DNA from: Acidimicrobiia bacterium
GTDB lineage: Bacteria; Actinomycetota; Acidimicrobiia; Spongiisociales; JAHEDJ01
DNA length: 64,000 bases
NCBI GenBank assembly: GCA_035471805.1
Contig: DATIPS010000019.1
Location: 145-64,144, forward strand
Direction of reading: 5' to 3'
Shown: one piece after another, positions 1 to 13,035 of the stretch
Position numbering within the stretch: position 1 is the stretch's first letter
Layout: the number at the start of each line of letters is the position of its first letter
Position numbers and translations under genes: made by a program
Notes under the pieces: model-generated
Databases searched by the model: none
What the model saw: the letters and a program-made list of their open reading frames with translations, nothing else
What the model was told of the DNA's origin: nothing

Positions 1-215
1 TCAACCAGGATGGACCCCAACGACGAATCAGCCAACTCCACCAGCCCGCCGGATGTCTCGGATTCGGTGGTGGTGGTCGTGGGTGCCTGAGTGGTGGTGG
101 TCGAAGGAGCAGCCGTTGTCGGCGGATTGGTCGTTGCCTGTTCGTCGGCGCCACCGGCCGAGCACGCCGCCGTCACCATGGCCAGGATTGCGAGAGTGGT
201 TCCCAGTCGCCGCAT
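1..215 (-). CDS. putative lipoprotein, N-terminal part only (gene continues past window start)
   Basis: Not in ORF track (runs off edge). Minus-strand frame from ATG at 213-215 reads MRRLGTTLAILAMVTAACSAGGADEQ (signal peptide + lipobox Cys) then Thr-rich linker TTTTQAPTTTTTE typical of actinobacterial solute-binding lipoproteins. AGGAGA Shine-Dalgarno 4-5 nt upstream. G/C-rich third codon positions. The overlapping track ORF 28..228 (other frame) is Arg/His-rich and less protein-like. Confidence 0.5.
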   Translation of the reverse strand, partial: MRRLGTTLAILAMVTAACSAGGADEQATTNPPTTAAPSTTTTQAPTTTTTESETSGGLVELADSSLGSILV

Positions 216-548
216 TGTCTCTCCTCATGTATGGGGTTTCCCGTCAGTACGTAAGCAAGGGTCATTCGGTTCTCGGTGGTGCCGATCCGCTGCCCTCGCG
301 AGAACCAGGAGGCAGGTCTGACGGGTGACTTCATCGCGACTCATAAGACGACCTCGTGTCGGCCGTGCCATCGGGGGCGATTGGCTTGGCTACGAAGGGG
401 TCGGACTGTCGAATCGAACAATTCTGGTGAGAAACCCCTGATGTCGACGACGTTCTAAGCCATTCCTTTGCCCGTTCAGGGACGAGTTCAGGCGACCTGG
501 TCTGCCGAATCTATGCCGGGCCCGAAACCGGCACAATCCGTCACATGA

Positions 549-576
549 AGAAGCCCCTGCAAATGCAAGGGCTTCT
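549..576 (-). terminator. intrinsic-terminator-like hairpin 3' of tRNA-Pro
   Basis: Inverted repeat agaagcccctgca/tgcaagggcttct (GC-rich ~12 bp stem, short loop) beginning 2 nt beyond the tRNA 3' end on the minus strand. Confidence 0.5.
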
Positions 577-577
577 C

Positions 578-654
578 TGGTCGGGCTGGCGGGATTTGAA
601 CCCGCGACCTCTTGACCCCCAGTCAAGCGCGCTGCCAAGCTGCGCCACAGCCCG
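578..654 (-). tRNA. tRNA-Pro (anticodon GGG)
   Basis: Reverse complement cgggctg-tg-gcgc-agcttggca-gcgc-g-cttga-CTGGGGG-tcaag-aggtc-gcggg-ttcaaat-cccgc-cagcccg-a-cca folds as a 77-nt cloverleaf. Acceptor stem is perfect (7 bp). Anticodon loop is CUGGGGG (GGG at 34-36). T-loop is TTCAAAT. CCA is encoded. Confidence 0.85.
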
Positions 655-850
655 TAGATCAGGGATCTTAGCCTTCGTGATGACCGTCGCAGGCGCCGTC
701 GAGGTCGCCGGCGATCACCATGGACAAGTCCCAAGACCGAAGACCCAGTCACCAACGCACCTCACCCCTTCAACGAGGCGTATCGACAGGTAGAGGCCGA
801 CCACGGTCAGTGTGAGGATGTATCCAATTGGTGGGCGCTTGCGGTCGGCC

Positions 851-2170
851 TCAGGTGCCATCTTTGCGACCGCGCCGGCGGGCGACCACTTTGACCGGGG
901 TGCCGATGAAGTCCTCGACACCACGGATGCGGTTCTCGAGGAAACGCAGGTAGTCCTCGCCCAGCACTCCCCCACCCACGAACACGACAATGGTCGGGGG
1001 CTCTACTCCTGCCTGGACGGCATACACGATGTGCGGGCGGCGGCCCTTTCTCACCGGTGGCGGGTGGGCCGCGTGCCACTCTCTGACCAGACGGTTCAGC
1101 CTGGGGGTCTGTATGCGCCGTGACCGATTATGGATAACCAGCTCCAGCGTCTTGTCGAGGCGGTGAAGTCGGGCACCCGTCTTGGCCGAGATGCGGAGAA
1201 CCGGAGCCCACGAGATGAATCCGAGCCGTCTGGCGACCGCGGCTTCCGTCGCTTCCCGCTGTTCGAGGTCGGCGATGTCCCACTTGTTCAACATGACGAT
1301 GAGTCCGGCGCCACCATCGGCGGCTTCTTCCGCGATCCGCTGGTCTTGCTGAGTCACCCCTTCTACCGAGTCGATGAGGAGGAGCGCAACGTCGGCGGCG
1401 GCCAGAGCCTCGCGCGCCCTGAGCACGGAGTAGAACTCGGTGTCCTCCTTGACCTTGGGGGCGCGCCTGATTCCTGCCGTGTCGACGATGTTGTACTGGA
1501 CCCCGCCCAGCGCGACCACTGCATCGATGGGATCCCTGGTCGTGCCGGGCACCGGCGACACGAGGACCCGTTCATCCTTCAACAGCTGGTTCAAGAGTGT
1601 GGACTTGCCGACGTTGGGACGTCCGACGATTGCCAACCTGGGCAGCGGGTCCGTCTCAGGCACCCTGTCCAGGGCGGGAAGCCTCTCGACGAGGCGGTCG
1701 AGTAGATCACCCGTACCGCGACCGTGCAATGCGGAAATGGGAATCGGCTCACCGAGCCCAAGGCTCCACAGTTCGGCGATGTCCAACTCGCGTGCTGCGT
1801 CGTCCACCTTGTTGGCGACGACCACTACCCGATCAGGAGTGGACCGGAGCAACGCCGCCACGCCGAGATCGTCGTCTGCGATCGAAGTCGAAGCATCGAG
1901 CACGAAGAGGACGACATCGGCACTTGCGAGCGCCGCCTCCGCCTGCCCGGAGATATCCGTCGCCAGTTCATCACCCGCCACCTGCCATCCCCCGGTGTCT
2001 ATCAAAAGGAACCGACGTCCGCTCCAGTCGGCTACGAACTCGCGCCTATCTCGCGTTACACCGGGGCGTTCCTCGACGACTGCAGAACGACGGCCGATGA
2101 TCCGGTTGATGAGAGTCGATTTGCCGACATTGGGGCGCCCGACGACGGCGACAATTGGAAGACGGGACAT
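851..2170 (-). CDS. der: ribosome-associated GTPase Der (EngA), two GTPase domains + KH-like C-terminus
   Basis: Two G-domains with G1 motifs VAVVGRPNVGKSTL and LAIVGRPNVGKSTLLN. ATG at 2168-2170 gives canonical N-terminus MSRLPIVAVVGRPNVGKS. The 47 codons upstream in the track ORF (to 2311) are a likely spurious extension. Confidence 0.9.
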   Translation of the reverse strand: MSRLPIVAVVGRPNVGKSTLINRIIGRRSAVVEERPGVTRDRREFVADWSGRRFLLIDTGGWQVAGDELATDISGQAEAALASADVVLFVLDASTSIADDDLGVAALLRSTPDRVVVVANKVDDAARELDIAELWSLGLGEPIPISALHGRGTGDLLDRLVERLPALDRVPETDPLPRLAIVGRPNVGKSTLLNQLLKDERVLVSPVPGTTRDPIDAVVALGGVQYNIVDTAGIRRAPKVKEDTEFYSVLRAREALAAADVALLLIDSVEGVTQQDQRIAEEAADGGAGLIVMLNKWDIADLEQREATEAAVARRLGFISWAPVLRISAKTGARLHRLDKTLELVIHNRSRRIQTPRLNRLVREWHAAHPPPVRKGRRPHIVYAVQAGVEPPTIVVFVGGGVLGEDYLRFLENRIRGVEDFIGTPVKVVARRRGRKDGT

Positions 2171-2344
2171 AAGTGAGGTAGATGGTACTCCGACCGAACC
2201 CGCCCGCGGCTGCCCGGCCTCCCGGCGCGGCGACCCCGTCGGACGCATTTCGGCGAGGGACAGAACACACAGCTTCCGCGCATCGCCATGCCGCCTCTCG
2301 AGCCGTGCCACAGCTATAGACCGGAATCACCTAGCCTTTGCCCC

Positions 2345-3394
2345 ATGCCCCCATCGATAGTGCTCCTTGCCGAACCGCGTGGCTTCTGTGCCGGTGTCGA
2401 GATGGCCATCAAAGCGCTCACCTGGATGGTGCGCGTGTTCGAAGCACCGGTCTATTGCTTCCACGAGATCGTGCACAATCGATGGGTGGTGAAAGCCTTC
2501 GAAGACGTCGGCGTTGTCTTCGTTGATGACATCGATGAGGTTCCCATCGGATCACCTGTCATGCTGTCGGCCCACGGTTCGGCCCCGGAGGTCGTTTCCG
2601 GGGCCGAGTCCCGAGCCGGCATAGTGGTCGATGCGGTCTGTCCCCTGGTCACCAAAGTCCATCACGAAGTCCGACGGATGGCAGAGCGCGGATTCGAAAT
2701 CATCTACGTTGGCCACGAGGGCCACGACGAAGCGGTCGGAACCGTCGCCGAGGCCCCTGAAGCGATCACACTCGTGGAACCGGAGACCGGGTTGAGCACT
2801 TTCGATCCGGCAGATCCGGCGAAGGTTGCCCTGCTCGCGCAGACCACGCTCGGCGTTCACGAATGGCAAGCGGTACTCGATGATGCCCGCCGCAAGTTCC
2901 CTTCGATCTCAACAGCCAGGAAGAGCGACCTCTGCTACGCCACGACGAACAGACAGGATGCAGTGCGTTCGCTCACCGATGAGGCCGACCTCATTCTCGT
3001 CGTCGGGTCGGCGTCATCGTCCAACACTCGCGCGCTCGTGCGTGTCGCTCGGGAGGCCGGTGTGAATGCACACCGTATCGATGACGCCTCGGCGATCGAT
3101 CCCGCCTGGCTGGACGCAGCGCAGGTCGTGGGAGTGACGGCCGGTGCGTCTGCTCCGGACCACCTCGTTCAAGAAGTGATAGACAGAGTCAACCCCAGCG
3201 AAGGGGTGCGTTTGCTTCAGATCACGGAGGAGGGTGAGTATTTTCCTCTTCCACCCCAGCTTCGAACTCTCCTACGGGTGCTTCAGCTCACTGTTGAAGC
3301 CGGATTCGGCGCTCAACGGCAGGCCGAGCCGGGACCGCTGGATCGAGACCCGGAATGGGATGCGACGGAGGCGCTCGCAGCTATAAGCCGCTGA
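2345..3394 (+). CDS. ispH: 4-hydroxy-3-methylbut-2-enyl diphosphate reductase IspH (LytB)
   Basis: MPPSIVLLAEPRGFCAGVEMAI start matches LytB N-terminus (first Fe-S Cys in RGFCAGV). Conserved HNxxV (CFHEIVHN), LLAQTT and SSNT motifs. ATG verified at 2345. ~50-aa C-terminal extension beyond the usual LytB length. Confidence 0.9.
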   Translation: MPPSIVLLAEPRGFCAGVEMAIKALTWMVRVFEAPVYCFHEIVHNRWVVKAFEDVGVVFVDDIDEVPIGSPVMLSAHGSAPEVVSGAESRAGIVVDAVCPLVTKVHHEVRRMAERGFEIIYVGHEGHDEAVGTVAEAPEAITLVEPETGLSTFDPADPAKVALLAQTTLGVHEWQAVLDDARRKFPSISTARKSDLCYATTNRQDAVRSLTDEADLILVVGSASSSNTRALVRVAREAGVNAHRIDDASAIDPAWLDAAQVVGVTAGASAPDHLVQEVIDRVNPSEGVRLLQITEEGEYFPLPPQLRTLLRVLQLTVEAGFGAQRQAEPGPLDRDPEWDATEALAAISR

Positions 3395-3402
3395 ACTGCG
3401 GT

Positions 3403-5349
3403 TCAACCCGTCTGCCGCTCTCTGGCGGTCACCACGATGCGGTCGACTACTTCTTCGATCGTCAGATCGGAGGTGTCGAGTATCACTGCGTCCGGTGCGG
3501 CGGTCAGCGGCGAATCCGCCCGCGTCGAGTCGATCGTGTCCCGACGGTGAAGATCGCTTGCGACCCGCTCCACATCCTCGTGACCCTGCTCAGAGGCGCG
3601 TCTGGTGGCTCGTACCTCCGGTCGTGCCGTCAGGAAGACCTTCAAGCCCGCTTCCGGGAAGACGACCGTTCCGATGTCCCGGCCTTCGACAACCGCACTG
3701 CCCCCCTGCCCGGCAACCCACTCATGCTGCTGTGCGACCATAAGTCGGCGGACCTCAGGGATGGCGGATACCGGGCTCGATGCTCTTGTCACGGCCTCCG
3801 TGCGAATCTCCGACCCCACATCACGCCCGTCGATCAGCATCCTGCCGCCCGCATACCCGAACCTGTGCCGGGAGACTTCTGCGATCACCGCAGATGTGTC
3901 GTCGAGATCAAGCGATGCTTCCAAGGCTACGAGTGTCGCCGCCCGATAGAAGGCACCGGTGTCGAGGTGTGGCAACTCGAGCCTCTCCCCCACTGCACGA
4001 CTCACGGTCGTCTTGCCCGACCCGCCGGGTCCGTCGATCGCGACAATGATTCCCATATCGGGGCGGACCATAGCCGCCGGAACTGTGACCGATTCGAGTG
4101 CGTTGAAGAATCCCGGCCACGTCTTCGCAACACATTCCGGATCCACGATCCCGACGCCCGGGGTGGCCACGCCGGCGACTGCGAATGCCATGGCGATGCG
4201 GTGGTCGTCGTACGTGGCTATTTCCCCCCCATGTGGTGAACCCCCCTCCACCACGATCGAATCAGCCGTTGTGTGTGCTGTGATGCCGATCACCGCCAGT
4301 TGCTCCCGGAGGGCCGTCAACCGGTCGGATTCCTTGATGCGGAGGTTGCCGATGTTCGAAACCGTCGACACCCCGGCGGCAAACGCACAGACAACCGCCA
4401 GCATGAGGGCGGCGTCCGGGGCGGAGTTCATGTCTCGCGACACCGCAGCCAACCGCCCAGGTCCCGAGACACGCACCCCCGTTTTAGTCCACTCGACCGA
4501 ACAACCCATATCGGCCAGGACCTCGAAGAACAACAGATCCGGTTGTCTAGAGCGAACGTCGACCCCCACGATCTCGATCGTTCCATTGCTCACTGCGGCT
4601 GCCGCGGCGGGATAAACCGCAGCCGAGACGTCCGGTTCGATCGAATAGCCCGTCCCTCGATAACCGGTAGATCCGCGAACGTGAATCATCGGTCCCGGCC
4701 GCATCTCGGCTGCGGCCCCGAATGCGGCCATGACGTCGAGCGTCATCTCAACATATGGTCGGGAGACGAGGACGTCGTTGAGGAAACGAATCTCCGTGTC
4801 GCCGTCGAGGAGAGGAGCGATCATGGCCACCGCTGAGACGTACTGACTCGACCTCGTGGCGTCGATCGTGATCGACCGTCCCACCGGGTTCTTGGCGCCG
4901 ACGGCCAGGGGCGGACCTTCGCCATCACCGAGCATCTCGACTTGCGCTCCGAGGGCGCGCAGAGCAGCTACGAGATCGGTGATCGGCCGGAGGCGCATGC
5001 GGGCACTGCCGTCTATCACGACCCGACCGGGTACGAGCGTGCTCACTGCTGTGATGAATCGAGCCGTCGTGCCGGAGTTTCCGACTTCCAGAGGTGCGCC
5101 GGGAACCGAAAGGAGACCGGCCGAGCCTTCCACTATCCACGCCTCCGGGTCATCGTCCGCGATAGCTACCCCGAGGGCCCGCAGGCAGGAGCGCATAGCC
5201 TCCGTGTCCTCGGCCTCCAGCGGGTGCAGCAGCGAACTGGGTCCACTAGCCAGGGCGGCGATCACCAGTGCGCGGTTTGTGATACTGCGCGAGCCCGGTA
5301 TCTCCAGGGATCCGGTCACCCGTCCGTGACGAACTTCGTAGGCGGTCAC
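3403..5349 (-). CDS. aroA-cmk: bifunctional fusion: 3-phosphoshikimate 1-carboxyvinyltransferase (AroA, N-terminal) + cytidylate kinase (Cmk, C-terminal)
   Basis: Single uninterrupted frame. AroA part has LEIPGSRSITNRALVIAALA, SAQYVSA, ends KTWPGFFNALESV. Continues through linker TVPAAMVRPD into MGIIVAIDGPGGSGKTTVSRA (P-loop Cmk; Met codon = cat at 4054-4056) to stop at 3403. Preferred start is GTG at 5349, overlapping rluB stop as GTGA and giving a normal-length AroA N-terminus. Track ORF extends to a start at 5403 (58-nt overlap with rluB). Confidence 0.85.
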   Translation of the reverse strand: MTAYEVRHGRVTGSLEIPGSRSITNRALVIAALASGPSSLLHPLEAEDTEAMRSCLRALGVAIADDDPEAWIVEGSAGLLSVPGAPLEVGNSGTTARFITAVSTLVPGRVVIDGSARMRLRPITDLVAALRALGAQVEMLGDGEGPPLAVGAKNPVGRSITIDATRSSQYVSAVAMIAPLLDGDTEIRFLNDVLVSRPYVEMTLDVMAAFGAAAEMRPGPMIHVRGSTGYRGTGYSIEPDVSAAVYPAAAAAVSNGTIEIVGVDVRSRQPDLLFFEVLADMGCSVEWTKTGVRVSGPGRLAAVSRDMNSAPDAALMLAVVCAFAAGVSTVSNIGNLRIKESDRLTALREQLAVIGITAHTTADSIVVEGGSPHGGEIATYDDHRIAMAFAVAGVATPGVGIVDPECVAKTWPGFFNALESVTVPAAMVRPDMGIIVAIDGPGGSGKTTVSRAVGERLELPHLDTGAFYRAATLVALEASLDLDDTSAVIAEVSRHRFGYAGGRMLIDGRDVGSEIRTEAVTRASSPVSAIPEVRRLMVAQQHEWVAGQGGSAVVEGRDIGTVVFPEAGLKVFLTARPEVRATRRASEQGHEDVERVASDLHRRDTIDSTRADSPLTAAPDAVILDTSDLTIEEVVDRIVVTARERQTG

Positions 5350-6062
5350 GGCGCGGTCGATCCGTACAGGGAACGAACTTCGTCGATCGTCAACGGACGC
5401 CACTCCCCGCTCTTCAGGTTCCCATCACGCAACGGGCCGATTGCGGAACGAAAGAGAGTGATGACGGGCGAACCGATCGCGCTGCACATGCGCCGAACTT
5501 CACGCTTGCGCCCTTCGCCCATCACGATTTCCAGCATCGTGTTCTCACCCTGTGCGTCCACGATCCTGGCGGACACGGCACGAGCCGGGCCGTCGTCGAG
5601 TTCGACACCGTCGGTCAACCTGCGGACGTCTGCCGGCTTGGGAGTCCCGTGAACGAGGGCGGTGTAGGTCTTGGTGACGCGGTTGCTGGGATGCGTTATG
5701 TGTTGTGCAAGGTCACCGTCGTTGGTCAACAGGATGAGACCTTCGGAGTCCAGGTCCAGACGTCCAACCGGAAACACCCTCGAGCCCTCCGGAACCAGGT
5801 CGACGACCGTCTTGCGACCGTGTGTGTCCTCGGCGGTGCTGACCACGCCCGCCGGTTTGTTCAACAGGTAGTACACGAGACCGGGGGCAACCGGGAGCGC
5901 TACTTCATCGACTTCCACACGCTCGACTTCGGGATCGATCTTCTGCCCCAGGTGGGCGACCGACCCGTCGACCTTGATGCGGCCGGCCCTGATCAGCTCC
6001 TCGGCAGCGCGCCGGGAGCACAGTCCGGACCGGGCTACCACCTTCTGCAACCGTTCGTTCAA
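5346..6062 (-). CDS. rluB: 23S rRNA pseudouridine synthase, RsuA/RluB family
   Basis: N-terminal S4 domain (RLQKVVARSGLCSRRAAEELIRAGRIKVDG) and catalytic motif VGRLDLDSEGLILLTNDG. Position between cmk and scpB matches mycobacterial Rv1711. Confidence 0.85.
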   Translation of the reverse strand: MNERLQKVVARSGLCSRRAAEELIRAGRIKVDGSVAHLGQKIDPEVERVEVDEVALPVAPGLVYYLLNKPAGVVSTAEDTHGRKTVVDLVPEGSRVFPVGRLDLDSEGLILLTNDGDLAQHITHPSNRVTKTYTALVHGTPKPADVRRLTDGVELDDGPARAVSARIVDAQGENTMLEIVMGEGRKREVRRMCSAIGSPVITLFRSAIGPLRDGNLKSGEWRPLTIDEVRSLYGSTAP

Positions 6063-6616
6063 GGCTTGAAGGTTTCTTCGAGCGACTCGACCACCGAAGC
6101 CGCCGGCACATGGTCGGCAAGGGGAGGCAGCTCAGAGAGTGATCGGAGTCCCATCTTCTCGAGGAAGAGGTCGGTGGTTCCGTAGACCGCCGGAGTACCC
6201 GGCAGCGCCAGGCGGCCGGTCTCTACTATCAGGCCGCGCCGTTCCAGCGTCCGCAGCGCCGAATCCGAATCGACACCGCGTATCTCGGACACTTGCGACC
6301 TGGAGACCGGCTGCTGGTAGGCGACAACTGCCAATGTCTCGAGCGCAGCTTGCGACAACCGGGTCGCGGTGGCCGTGGTCGCAAAGCGGTCCAGGTACGG
6401 GAAGGCGTCGGGCGCGGTATACAGCCTCCAGCCACCCCCCACGTTGCGGAGCTCCAGTCCCCGCCCGGACAAACGATCGGCCAGAGCATCGAGTGCGGAC
6501 CGCACGTCGTCTGCCGGCAACTCCAGAACCTCCGAAAGTTCCTCGAGCGGAACGGGCGTCTCGGCCACGAACAGGATCGCTTCGATGATCGACGGGTTGT
6601 CCATCATCTGCTCCAT
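6059..6616 (-). CDS. scpB: segregation and condensation protein B (ScpB)
   Basis: Winged-helix ScpB signature IEAILFVAETPVPLEEL, QPVSRSQVSEIRGV. 4-nt overlap with rluB and directly downstream of scpA. Confidence 0.85.
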   Translation of the reverse strand: MEQMMDNPSIIEAILFVAETPVPLEELSEVLELPADDVRSALDALADRLSGRGLELRNVGGGWRLYTAPDAFPYLDRFATTATATRLSQAALETLAVVAYQQPVSRSQVSEIRGVDSDSALRTLERRGLIVETGRLALPGTPAVYGTTDLFLEKMGLRSLSELPPLADHVPAASVVESLEETFKP

Positions 6617-7362
6617 TCACTGACGAGAACGTTTCCGTCACCGGTGTGGCGAATCTCAATCGGAGCGAGCCAGTGATCTTGAGCGACGTTGACCAAACCC
6701 CACCTGGCGAGTTCGAGGAGAGCCAGGAAGTACGCGACCACCTCTACTTTGCGGGTGCAGTGTTCAACGACCTCGTCGAACGTAGACTCGGCCAGCGAAG
6801 CGAACCTGACCCGCAGCTCGTCGATGGCCTGCTCGACGGAGGGAAGGTCGAGATCCAGATGATCCAGGTCGGGCTCTCCTGAGCGCTCCGTGAAGACACG
6901 GTGTGCAAGGGCGGCGAAGCCGTCGAGGTCGAGCGGGATTCGGACTTCGGGCGGCGTCTTTACGACCATCGGGTCCAGACCGGCTCTCCGCTCCATATAG
7001 CGGTTGTTCGCCTGGAACCGGTGTCCGAGCACCGCAGCCACATCCTTGAAAGTCACGCACTGCAGCAACCGGGTGATCAACCGGTCGCGCTCTTCCATTA
7101 GGGCCAGTTCTTCGTCGAGATCGATATCGATGTCGTCCGGGAGCAGGTGGCGAGCTTTCAACTGGATGAGGGTGGCGGCGATCAACAGGAACTCGCTGGT
7201 CAGGTCGAGGTCCAGTCGCCGGATCTCATCGATGTAGGAGACATATTCGGAAACGATGTCGATGAGGCTCAACCCGGCGATATCGACCTGATGGCGCGAG
7301 ACCAGTTGGAGGAGCAAGTCGAGTGGTCCCTCGAACACGGCTGTCTTGACTTCATAGGTCAT
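6604..7362 (-). CDS. scpA: segregation and condensation protein A (ScpA, kleisin)
   Basis: FEGPLDLLLQLV N-terminus and LLELARWGLV C-terminal winged helix typical of ScpA. Overlaps scpB start. Confidence 0.85.
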   Translation of the reverse strand: MTYEVKTAVFEGPLDLLLQLVSRHQVDIAGLSLIDIVSEYVSYIDEIRRLDLDLTSEFLLIAATLIQLKARHLLPDDIDIDLDEELALMEERDRLITRLLQCVTFKDVAAVLGHRFQANNRYMERRAGLDPMVVKTPPEVRIPLDLDGFAALAHRVFTERSGEPDLDHLDLDLPSVEQAIDELRVRFASLAESTFDEVVEHCTRKVEVVAYFLALLELARWGLVNVAQDHWLAPIEIRHTGDGNVLVSEWSR

Positions 7363-7371
7363 GGTCGATCC

Positions 7372-7902
7372 TCATCGTATTGCAGGCGGCTGAGGGTGCG
7401 GTGGCTTTCCCGGGTGATCGGCCATCTCGAGCAGACGCCAATCCCCGACGCTGATCTCGTTCGGGCGGCCGTCGTGATGATGGCGTGCAAACTCGACCAC
7501 CACCCGCTCGCAACCCAGCGCTTCGAGTTCCCCGGCGCCCAGGCGGCCGTGATCGACGTAGGCGGCGCTCTTGCCCCGCAGCGGCAGGCCGAGTTTCATC
7601 ATGGCGCTGGCGATCGAACGTCTGAATATCCCCAGGCCGGAGTGCCGCTTGCCGACATCATGGAAGAGCGCCGCCCTGATCAGATCGAGGCGGTCCGGGG
7701 CGAGACCGTGAATCCGGCCGGCCGCTCTGTAGGCATGTCGTTGATCGGCGATCGGCTGTTCGCAGAAGAGGGCTCTTTCCTCGGTTGACCTCAGCCACGA
7801 AGCAACCTGTGCCCCCTCTGAATCGTCGAGAGGTCCGGCGGTTGCCACCTCGAAGAACCTGCGGGCTAGGTGCCACCACGAACCGATAGCGCGGCCCCGC
7901 AT
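7372..7902 (-). CDS. HD-domain phosphohydrolase
   Basis: H..HD metal-binding motif (ALFHDVGK) and second His cluster (FARHHHDG). ATG verified at 7900-7902 (MRGRAIGSWW). Track ORF's upstream 43 codons overlap the TraR-like gene and are rejected. Confidence 0.6.
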   Translation of the reverse strand: MRGRAIGSWWHLARRFFEVATAGPLDDSEGAQVASWLRSTEERALFCEQPIADQRHAYRAAGRIHGLAPDRLDLIRAALFHDVGKRHSGLGIFRRSIASAMMKLGLPLRGKSAAYVDHGRLGAGELEALGCERVVVEFARHHHDGRPNEISVGDWRLLEMADHPGKPPHPQPPAIR

Positions 7903-7918
7903 CCGAATCGCCCCGCTC

Positions 7919-8155
7919 TCAGGAACGGCGGGACTTGCAGTCCATGCAGAGAACGGAGGTCGGGCGAGCTTCCATCCTTGCCGCGCCGATCTCCTTGTCG
8001 CATTTCGCGCACCGGCCGTACGTACCGGCATCGAGTTTGGCCAGAGCGGCGTCCACCGAGTCGAGTTGCCGCTTCAGGCTCTCGACGAGGCCCAGGACTT
8101 CGGTACGCTCCGCGGTCGCTGCTCCGGCATCCGCGAAGCCGTCGCCGAACTGCAC
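7919..8155 (-). CDS. DksA/TraR-family C4 zinc-finger protein
   Basis: 78 aa with C-terminal CAKCDKEI...CMDC four-Cys zinc ribbon preceded by a coiled-coil-like segment. Confidence 0.6.
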   Translation of the reverse strand: MQFGDGFADAGAATAERTEVLGLVESLKRQLDSVDAALAKLDAGTYGRCAKCDKEIGAARMEARPTSVLCMDCKSRRS

Positions 8156-8214
8156 GTCGGAGCGCAGATCACCCGTCTCGGTAGCGCCGAGTTCCTCGAG
8201 TTGATGGACGAGCT

Positions 8215-9144
8215 TCAGACGCTCTTCGTTGAGCAGGGTCTTGGCGGCGTCGTAGTTGATGACAATCGGCTCCGTGGGTGAGACTCGACGTACACCTCGA
8301 TCAGATGACGAGGCGACACTTTCGTATAGATCTGGGTTGTGGAGATACTAGCGTGGCCGAGCATCTCCTGGACCGACCGCAGGTCTGCGCCTCCCTGGAC
8401 CATGTGCGTCGCCGCCGAATGACGCAAGACATGAGGCGAAACAGCCGCCTGTGACATCCCGGCCCTGGCCGCTGCTTTCCGGACGATTCCCCACACACCC
8501 TGCCGGGTCAGGCGCCCTCCCCTGGCGTTGAGGAAGACCGCGCCGGGGTCGGGCCTTCCGCCCAACGCGGCCCGACGATCAGGCAGGTAGTACTCGATGG
8601 CCAGGACGGCATGAGCTCCGATCGGTACCAAACGCTGCTTTCCGCCTTTGCCCGTGACGAGTGCCGTCCTGTCCTCGAGATCCAGGTCGATCACATCGAG
8701 ACCGACGGCTTCTGCGACTCTGGAGCCGGAGGCGTACATGAATTCGAGAATGGCCCGGTCGCGCCGTCCCAAGGAAGTCCGCACGTCGGGAGCCGTGATC
8801 AGTTGCTCGACTTCGTCGATCTCTAGTGCCTTGGGTAGTCGCAGGCCGGGTTGTGGTGCCTGGACCATGGTCGTCGGGTCCGCGCTTTCGGTTCCCTCGA
8901 TCACCAGGAACCGGTGTAATCCGCGTAGTGCCGCGACCTTGCGAGAGATCGTCGTCGCGCGCAGACCCCGTCTGTTCAAGGAGGCCACGAAGTCATCGAC
9001 CAGCCCGGCCGATGGCGTTCGACCATCGAGAAACCCTAGATAGTCGGTGAGATCTCGACGGTAGGCCTTGATGGTGGCCGGAGCCAGGCCGCGCTCGACG
9101 GTCAGCGACGCGAGGTACTCGGCTATTCCGTTCTCCAGGCTCAC
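8215..9144 (-). CDS. xerD: site-specific tyrosine recombinase XerD
   Basis: Core-binding N-domain plus catalytic tetrad region RVAEAVGL...HVLRHSAATHMVQGGADLRSVQEMLGHASISTTQIYT (R, H-x-x-R-H, nucleophile Tyr). Synteny (nudix-pyrG neighbour) as mycobacterial Rv1701. Confidence 0.85.
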   Translation of the reverse strand: MSLENGIAEYLASLTVERGLAPATIKAYRRDLTDYLGFLDGRTPSAGLVDDFVASLNRRGLRATTISRKVAALRGLHRFLVIEGTESADPTTMVQAPQPGLRLPKALEIDEVEQLITAPDVRTSLGRRDRAILEFMYASGSRVAEAVGLDVIDLDLEDRTALVTGKGGKQRLVPIGAHAVLAIEYYLPDRRAALGGRPDPGAVFLNARGGRLTRQGVWGIVRKAAARAGMSQAAVSPHVLRHSAATHMVQGGADLRSVQEMLGHASISTTQIYTKVSPRHLIEVYVESHPRSRLSSTTTPPRPCSTKSV

Positions 9145-9163
9145 GCCGGCCGCCTCGCCGCGC

Positions 9164-9712
9164 TCATTCGACGTTGTACCGAGCCAGCACGTCGTTCAAA
9201 GCGAGCAATGTCTTCGCGTCGGTGATCGATCCGGCGGCCATCGCCGATCGGAGCTCGGCAAACGTCATGTGGATTATCTCGGCGTGCTGTTCCTCGGCTC
9301 CCTGCGGCCGGGCTCCGACCTCGACCAGTTCGGTCGCCAGAAACAACTCGATCCGCTCGTCGGTGAAACCCGGGGTCGTGTGGATCGTGCGTAGGTATTC
9401 GATCCTGCCCGGCCGGTAGCCCGTTTCTTCCTCACATTCCCGAGCAGCCGCCCGGCTCGGGGGTTCGCCGTCGACGTCCAGCTTGCCGGCCGGGATTTCC
9501 AAGACCATGGTGCGCAGCGGTGCTCGAAACTGGCGCATCAGGACGACACCATCATCGAGTACGGGAACCACCGCGACGGCACCGGGGTGCCGAATCACTA
9601 TCCGTTCGAACTCGTCACCCTCGTCGAAACGGTAGGTCTCGACCTCAACAGACAGGAACCCGAACCGCGCCGCCTTTCGGCTCCCGACAAGAGCCGCCGG
9701 GATCGACTGCAC
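9164..9712 (-). CDS. NUDIX hydrolase (ADP-ribose pyrophosphatase-like)
   Basis: Nudix box GKLDVDGEPPSRAAARECEEETG. Neighbour of pyrG as Rv1700. Confidence 0.8.
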   Translation of the reverse strand: MQSIPAALVGSRKAARFGFLSVEVETYRFDEGDEFERIVIRHPGAVAVVPVLDDGVVLMRQFRAPLRTMVLEIPAGKLDVDGEPPSRAAARECEEETGYRPGRIEYLRTIHTTPGFTDERIELFLATELVEVGARPQGAEEQHAEIIHMTFAELRSAMAAGSITDAKTLLALNDVLARYNVE

Positions 9713-9713
9713 C

Positions 9714-13035
<3,322 letters not shown>

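Follow-up and report, generated by a model that had tools for sequence, protein, structure and literature searches.

Can one gene of an Acidimicrobiia genome really encode two complete enzymes of different pathways, and what would such a fusion mean? The question arises from a 64,000-nucleotide (nt) stretch of DNA from an Acidimicrobiia bacterium (GenBank assembly GCA_035471805.1, contig DATIPS010000019.1), here called the window, meaning the whole stretch that was analyzed. In it, one open reading frame (ORF) joins aroA, the gene for 5-enolpyruvylshikimate-3-phosphate (EPSP) synthase (EPSPS), to cmk, the gene for cytidylate kinase (Cmk). We found that the AroA-Cmk fusion in this genome is genuine. 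We also think it very probable that the explanation developed below is right as a whole: a bifunctional gene with both domains intact, fused independently of the catalogued family NF008816, with an effect on co-expression only. The features on which the argument rests are these:

3403..5349, minus strand: fused aroA-cmk ORF (648 aa, 67.7 kDa; GTG start, TGA stop at 3405..3403)
4096..5325, minus strand: EPSP synthase (AroA) domain, residues 9-418 (from Pfam, the 1g6s alignment, column counts, and AlphaFold2 confidence, pLDDT, >90)
4086..4057, minus strand: inter-domain linker TVPAAMVRPD, residues 422-431
3424..4044, minus strand: Cmk domain, residues 436-642 (from Pfam, structure alignments, and column counts)
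4032..4009, minus strand: Cmk P-loop, GPGGSGKT

An earlier note on this DNA had described a complete EPSP synthase, a linker, and a complete cytidylate kinase in one ORF with neither stop codon nor frameshift at the junction. Pfam and NCBIfam matches bear out both domains, and the two are read in one frame; the strand, which the note did not give, is the minus strand. The linker is also real, but it lies slightly upstream of the 4040-4070 interval in which the junction had been placed.

Over the AroA half, 413 of the 417 positions of the Pfam EPSP_synthase model are covered (E = 1.6e-106), and the aroA equivalog TIGR01356 is matched at model positions 1-412 of 415 with 416.3 bits, above its cutoff of 287.25 bits. 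Residues 10-420 of the 427 in Escherichia coli EPSPS (1g6s) align to this half, which keeps (in E. coli numbering) S23, R27, G96, R100, R124, and S169-Q171, together with S197, Y200, D313, N336, K340, E341, R344, H385, R386, and K411. Most of these residues, which we take to be binders of shikimate 3-phosphate (S3P) and of phosphoenolpyruvate (PEP) or glyphosate, are invariant across 62 Acidimicrobiia sequences.

The Cmk half is equally complete, covering 209 of 211 positions of Pfam Cytidylate_kin (E = 6.6e-64) and positions 2-215 of the 217 in the cmk equivalog TIGR00017, with 191.4 bits against a cutoff of 135.55. Solved Cmk chains (u40339, 3r8c, 3r20, 1q3t, and 1kdo) align to it over about 7-223 of about 228. 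All 20 Cmk columns that we checked, catalytic and binding positions that include the P-loop, R41, R110, R131, D132, the lid arginines, R181, D185, and R188, are conserved over the same 62 sequences, with one position of T/S exchange and a single Gly-to-Ala change.

The nearest of the solved Cmk structures are mycobacterial. The AroA domain is closest to class I EPSPS, scoring 273 bits to the E. coli enzyme and 145 to that of Mycobacterium tuberculosis, so the two halves differ in their phylogenetic affinities. Residues 90-98 (window 5056-5082, minus strand) read GNSGTTARF, a loop that we take to be a determinant of glyphosate sensitivity; G96 is kept, and the equivalent of P101, presumably a glyphosate-tolerance position, is Phe.

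An AlphaFold2 model of the fusion, built with 66 fused homologues, has a mean predicted local distance difference test score (pLDDT) of 93.2 and a predicted template modeling score (pTM) of 0.73. Its only weaker block is residues 421-430, with a mean pLDDT of 69 compared with about 95 in the flanking blocks. The model fits two well-folded domains on a flexible tether without a confident fixed interface. Linkers of fused relatives range from about 6 to 24 aa and differ in length by multiples of three. A peptide spanning the AroA-Cmk junction would read ...FFNALESVTVPAAMVRPDMGIIVAIDG.

Whether relatives share the fusion or uniformly carry two genes had been named by the earlier note as the matter on which its reading would turn. 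Among the best 120 clusters from a search of 5.8 billion clustered proteins, about 95 hold both Pfam domains, at lengths of 616-691 aa and identities from 99% down to 40%; the named members of these clusters are Acidimicrobiia metagenome-assembled genomes. In a species-level scan (one genome per species, giving 80 loci, with tblastn and frame analysis of the aroA/cmk junction), AroA and Cmk share one frame, uninterrupted by a stop, at 19 of about 60 Acidimicrobiia species loci. Six more metagenome contigs, fetched by exact protein, carry an identical gene arrangement with the same neighbors. Relatives thus share the fusion and are not uniformly two-gene.

The upstream boundary of the fused gene is set by its neighbor:

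5346..6062, minus strand: rluB (S4 and pseudouridine synthase domains), the upstream gene in the string scpA-scpB-rluB-aroA-cmk
5346..5349, minus strand: GTGA overlap of the aroA-cmk start (GTG, 5349..5347) with the rluB stop (TGA, 5348..5346)

In the ORF listing the longest reading runs over 3403..5403 on the minus strand, 666 aa counted from the first GTG. We rejected a start at GTG 5403: this would put 58 nt of the gene inside rluB, and in relatives the start is consistently at an ATGA or GTGA overlap. Such an overlap on rluB is present in the loci L081-L086, and the proteins of close relatives are called at 642-652 aa. Since relatives use the overlap start and have these lengths, 5349, which the earlier note had thought a plausible start, is accepted over 5403. 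To judge from the sequence, the overlap is the arrangement expected for translational coupling of aroA-cmk to rluB. A scan of 3200-6200 found neither a canonical sigma-70 promoter nor an intrinsic terminator.

The order scpB-rluB-aroA-cmk-ispH-der is conserved in about 60 Acidimicrobiia species, and within it the aroA-cmk junction occurs in three states. At 29 unfused loci the aroA stop and the cmk start share nucleotides in a 4-nt overlap (ATGA or GTGA), a layout that is classic for translational coupling. The two genes of one clade stand apart, with 65-245 nt of spacer between them, and at the 19 loci described above aroA and cmk are fused.

We placed these states on neighbor-joining trees, one of the concatenated AroA and Cmk domains and a separate one of the AroA domain that includes outside sequences. 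In the concatenated tree one fused locus (L020) falls inside the spacer clade, which has 100% bootstrap support, and the remaining fused groups sit in a super-clade with inverted ispH, interleaved with unfused lineages of the overlap type. L001, L002, and L003 share a group with the window (100%), and L028 and L011-L015 join it next (80%). The fused state thus occupies at least two well-separated places in the tree, from which we conclude that fusion took place at least twice within the class and probably more often. A single origin within Acidimicrobiia was considered and is unsupported by the tree, the count itself being limited by the weak neighbor-joining backbone. In the AroA-domain tree, AroA-Cmk fusions are scattered over at least four positions, which unfused sequences separate.

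Two observations concern the neighboring genes along this string. The ispH gene (lytB) lies at 2288-3394 on the plus strand of the window; it is inverted, and convergent with cmk, in the window's super-clade, and co-directional between cmk and der in other Acidimicrobiia (loci L017-L033 and others were compared). Its inversion marks the clade that holds most of the fusions. Here rluB and aroA also overlap by 4 nt, and two homologues from other assemblies are single ORFs that include rluB: an RluB-AroA-Cmk of 885 aa (P0038) and an RluB-AroA of 669 aa (P0132). Such ORFs reflect either more fusions in this string or indel errors.

How new is the architecture? The earlier note overestimated its unusualness: a curated NCBIfam family, NF008816 (PRK11860), holds bifunctional 3-phosphoshikimate 1-carboxyvinyltransferase/cytidylate kinases from Burkholderiales and other Betaproteobacteria, and the architecture arose several times. 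On sequence comparison, then, the architecture is an already catalogued and recurrent one, of which the window protein is a separate lineage. Members of NF008816 likewise carry an N-terminal EPSP synthase, a short linker, and a C-terminal Cmk in one polypeptide of about 660-690 aa, and positions 15-658 of the 662 in the model align end to end with residues 29-664 of the window protein (in its 666-aa version). However, the window protein scores 480.9 bits, below the curated cutoff of 943, whereas three true members that served as positive controls, P0140, P0141, and P0147, reach 1040-1160 bits. Their identity to the window protein is only 36-39% over the full length and 33-36% for the AroA domain. 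NCBI gives one of the three a "bifunctional..." name, and related clusters come from Betaproteobacteria and Burkholderiaceae. In the AroA-domain tree NF008816 forms a clade apart from the window, which groups with fused and unfused Acidimicrobiia. Because the AroA clades are separate, and because unfused sister lineages share the window's synteny, the fusion in the window is independent of that in NF008816, which belongs to a different phylum.

An exhaustive search of representatives also brought up more distant full-length matches, a second tier with 34-39% identity, and a further AroA-Cmk fused protein comes from Verrucomicrobiota. Cytidylate_kin has been listed among the EPSPS-associated Pfam domains, in 88 proteins (PMC9394408). 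The order aroA (there called aroF)>cmk>rpsA has been described as an ancient linkage group, with lytB sometimes beside cmk, as in Geobacter (PMC1173090). On the evidence of the trees, it is from this old adjacency that the architecture has arisen several times.

The unfused aroA>cmk pairs of Acidimicrobiia are the closest comparison. They share the scpB-rluB-aroA-cmk-ispH-der neighborhood, and their orthologous domains are 37-52% identical to those of the window; they differ in that their aroA stop overlaps the cmk start or precedes a spacer of 65-245 nt, whereas the window has no such stop. Two other families, NF007071 (Cmk/Der GTPase) and NF010004 (PanC/Cmk), also join Cmk to a chromosomal neighbor, and in the string of the window der follows cmk as the nearest gene in the same direction. 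In these families, however, the partner is another one, Cmk is N-terminal in NF007071, and the window protein matches only over its Cmk part. EPSP synthase, for its part, takes N- and C-terminal partners in fungal AROM, in TyrA-AroA (NF011381), and in AroA-shikimate kinase, and the homologues recovered here include TyrA-AroA-Cmk (P0185), AroA-SKI (P0142, P0154, and P0177), TyrA-AroA, and RluB-AroA (P0132). All of those partners except RluB belong to aromatic amino-acid biosynthesis, whereas Cmk serves an unrelated pathway.

The explanation that we favor is a simple one. The fusion would have arisen from an aroA>cmk pair that was already adjacent and usually translationally coupled; aroA lost its stop codon, and its reading frame would now continue across a short tether into cmk. 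Starting at the GTG coupled to rluB (5349), translation would yield one polypeptide of 67.7 kDa with two independently folding, catalytically intact domains. EPSP synthase catalyzes step 6 of the shikimate pathway, converting S3P and PEP to EPSP and Pi, and Cmk, a CMP/dCMP kinase, converts CMP and ATP to CDP and ADP. No substrate or product is common to the two reactions. We therefore expect no channelling, and nothing indicates the link between aromatic amino-acid and pyrimidine metabolism that the earlier note had read into the fusion. Both enzymes are, we assume, monomeric. The most likely sole effect would be obligatory co-expression at 1:1 stoichiometry, and the fusion would recur because the two genes adjoin so tightly that indels or the loss of a stop can join them, with a tolerated, near-neutral result. 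That Cmk fuses with whichever neighbor it has (AroA here, Der in NF007071, PanC in NF010004) supports the near-neutral view. We infer from all of this that both domains are active, that the fusion is neutral, and that there is no channelling.

The Acidimicrobiia loci offer a clean natural series for the fusion of tightly coupled neighbors, from spacer to 4-nt overlap to in-frame fusion, run through more than once, and a warning against taking "Rosetta-stone" fusions as evidence for a functional link. There is also a consequence for annotation. Public records name these Acidimicrobiia proteins only "3-phosphoshikimate 1-carboxyvinyltransferase"; the AroA-only name hides the Cmk function, so that cmk may wrongly seem to be missing from these genomes.

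Several points weigh against this explanation. The equivalent of E. coli K22, a residue of the AroA half, is arginine (R21; window 5287-5289, minus strand). We found no second aroA or cmk within the 64-kb window, though a copy elsewhere in the genome is possible. The literature searched contained no experimental study of any AroA-Cmk enzyme. The neighbor-joining backbone is weakly supported (15-47%), which limits how exactly fusion and fission events within the window's super-clade can be counted. Lastly, a promoter-like module in the linker suggests that the fusion is perhaps not the sole or even the main source of Cmk. The module has two parts:

4067..4072, minus strand: −10-like hexamer TATGGT, of the TANNNT type
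4054..4056, minus strand: in-frame ATG (M432), exactly 10 nt after TATGGT

M432 stands where unfused relatives have the cmk start codon and, as far as the sequence tells, is either a relic of that start or an internal start still in use. A product begun there would have 217 aa and 23.2 kDa, with the N-terminus MGIIVAIDG and the N-terminal peptide MGIIVAIDGPGGSGK. On this reading TATGGT would drive an internal transcript, leaderless or with a leader of 2-4 nt, that is translated from M432, and a free Cmk of 23 kDa would be made besides, or mainly instead of, the 68-kDa fusion, the read-through of aroA being a tolerated by-product. We regard this as possible, but doubtful.

What speaks for it is chiefly conservation. 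Relatives have TAGGGT or TAACGT in place of TATGGT, and the pattern CTA-NN-GT followed by N10 and ATG is kept in 14 of the 15 members of the window's clade, even though fourfold sites are saturated there (only 25-33% identical between subgroups). The second codon of the hexamer varies (R, M, or N, from AGG, ATG, or AAC), yet its T-A is always preserved, and the preceding codon ends in T; TANNNT otherwise occurs at only 0-4 per ORF of roughly 1.9 kb. A similar geometry is found outside the fused clade, with TANNCT 8-10 nt before the start of free-standing cmk in 12 of 14 spacer-type loci and TAGGCT-N8-GTG retained in the independently fused L020. Within the window, 17 of the 156 TANNNT hexamers precede a plausible gene start by 6-11 nt; these starts include those of ispH, der, and scpA. 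In the pooled loci, which are homologous so that the counts are not independent, distances from TANNNT to the start are most frequent at N = 6, and a shoulder extends to N = 12. TANNNT near the start codon is a published signature of leaderless genes in Actinobacteria (PMC3160421) and the preferred SigA −10 motif in mycobacteria (PMC6448022). With its conserved TANNNT a few nucleotides before a start, TATGGT-N10-ATG (4072..4054) has the form of a leaderless or short-leader actinobacterial promoter.

Other evidence tells against an internal transcript. The 10-nt spacing exceeds the canonical 6 nt and would leave a leader of 2-4 nt, with which translation is uncertain. A −35-like element is missing, and the scan for two-hexamer sigma-70 promoters returned none. 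No Shine-Dalgarno (SD) sequence precedes M432 or M427 (−2.7 and −4.4 kcal/mol, values at background level). In one clade member (L085) the hexamer reads TGGGGT. Seven fused lineages lack an ATG within about 10 codons upstream of the Cmk domain. Although L020, one of these seven, keeps a GTG after its hexamer, at least the other six must obtain Cmk from the fusion protein. It is accordingly no more than a tentative suggestion, drawn from codon-level comparison, that the linker keeps the −10 element and start of cmk under nucleotide-level selection, a gene within a gene with two Cmk products. In that case the 68-kDa fusion may come from the scpA-rluB operon transcript and free Cmk from the internal one.

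If the linker module were an active promoter, a fused gene could keep independent expression of its downstream domain. Dual output of this kind would explain the repeated tolerance of stop-codon loss in aroA and would provide a case of an intact promoter preserved within the coding sequence of an inter-domain linker.

Two other readings of the linker were tried and set aside. An SD-driven internal start in the window is rejected on the background-level anti-SD energies before M427 and M432; the GCTAGGGT motif of relatives is a weak SD too (−4.6 kcal/mol). Among fused lineages, strong SD-like runs occur only in what we call group B (L005, L006, L010, and L026), where a purine run (e.g., GAGGAGGGA) stands 7-8 nt before the linker ATG with energies of −10.7 to −12.1 kcal/mol, in the top 1-4% of positions; the sisters of group B (L004, L007, and L009) have lost the linker ATG. 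A conserved off-frame TAG or TAA, whether a relic or a functional stop, is rejected as well: it is missing in the window and L001 (TAT) and in L085 (TGG), whereas TANNNT fits 14 of 15.

Returning to a fusion with both domains at work, we consider it very unlikely that one of them is degenerate or non-catalytic, as AroA would be if inactivated by the K22R change. The change is confined to the window's subclade, being found in the window and six relatives (L001, L002, L011, L012, L014, and L015), 7 of the 62 sequences; the remaining 55 have Lys. Against inactivation, every other catalytic residue of both domains is conserved, both equivalog cutoffs are passed, both domains are modeled with confidence, a Lys-to-Arg exchange conserves charge, and the window offers no other aroA or cmk to take over. 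In Petunia, a plant, EPSPS with Lys-to-Arg at the equivalent position reportedly retains activity.

Least credible, and by a reckoning of ours extremely improbable, is an assembly or sequencing artefact in which a 1-nt indel near an ATGA-type overlap falsely merges two genes: most Acidimicrobiia do have aroA and cmk in different frames with a 4-nt overlap, so that a single indel could mimic fusion, but the same frame and linker recur in P0001, a 99%-identical protein of a separate assembly whose cluster has 17 sequences, and in relatives at 87, 75, 74, 70, 69, 68, and 66% identity (from NCBI, ENA, JGI, and Logan), the 19 fused species-level genomes come from different assemblers and their linkers differ by multiples of three, the window linker exceeds the expectation for simple overlap collapse by 30 nt, and with so many independently assembled relatives from different projects sharing the fusion a local indel is excluded for practical purposes.

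In the sister clade with a spacer between aroA and cmk, we noticed a conserved element of about 90 nt, GGAGAGGA..CTTCGCCCCCATTGTCCGAA-CCCCCC-AAGTAGGACAACCCCTCCGGGGCCGG (L017:7234-7395, L019:7219-7392, L022:7240-7398, and equivalents in L021, L023-L025, L027, L076, and L077). Its hairpin, GTCC/GGAC around a C-rich loop, is invariant; seven compensatory pairs fall in an outer stem, and a TAnnTT of its own lies about 10 nt upstream. Rfam has no match for the element, and the window lacks it; it looks like an undescribed small RNA or cis element. This element and the linker module are the parts that could repay further work.

An Rfam search of window positions 1-10000 returned nothing relevant except one tRNA gene, at 581-654 on the minus strand downstream of der. 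A match to the BjrC68 small RNA at 505-584 on the plus strand is below threshold (25.8 bits against a gathering score of 39) and probably due to chance.

TANNNT lies 6-11 nt before many gene starts of the window, among them 2345 (ispH), 2170 (der), and 7362 (scpA), as well as 28211, 26741, 24372, 36467, 48120, and others. This distribution suggests that leaderless or very short-leader mRNAs are widespread. For two of these genes the starts given by the longest ORF (ispH at 2288 and der at 2311) are probably too far upstream; a start at 2345 for ispH (349 aa) and at 2170 for der (439 aa) matches the protein lengths of relatives.

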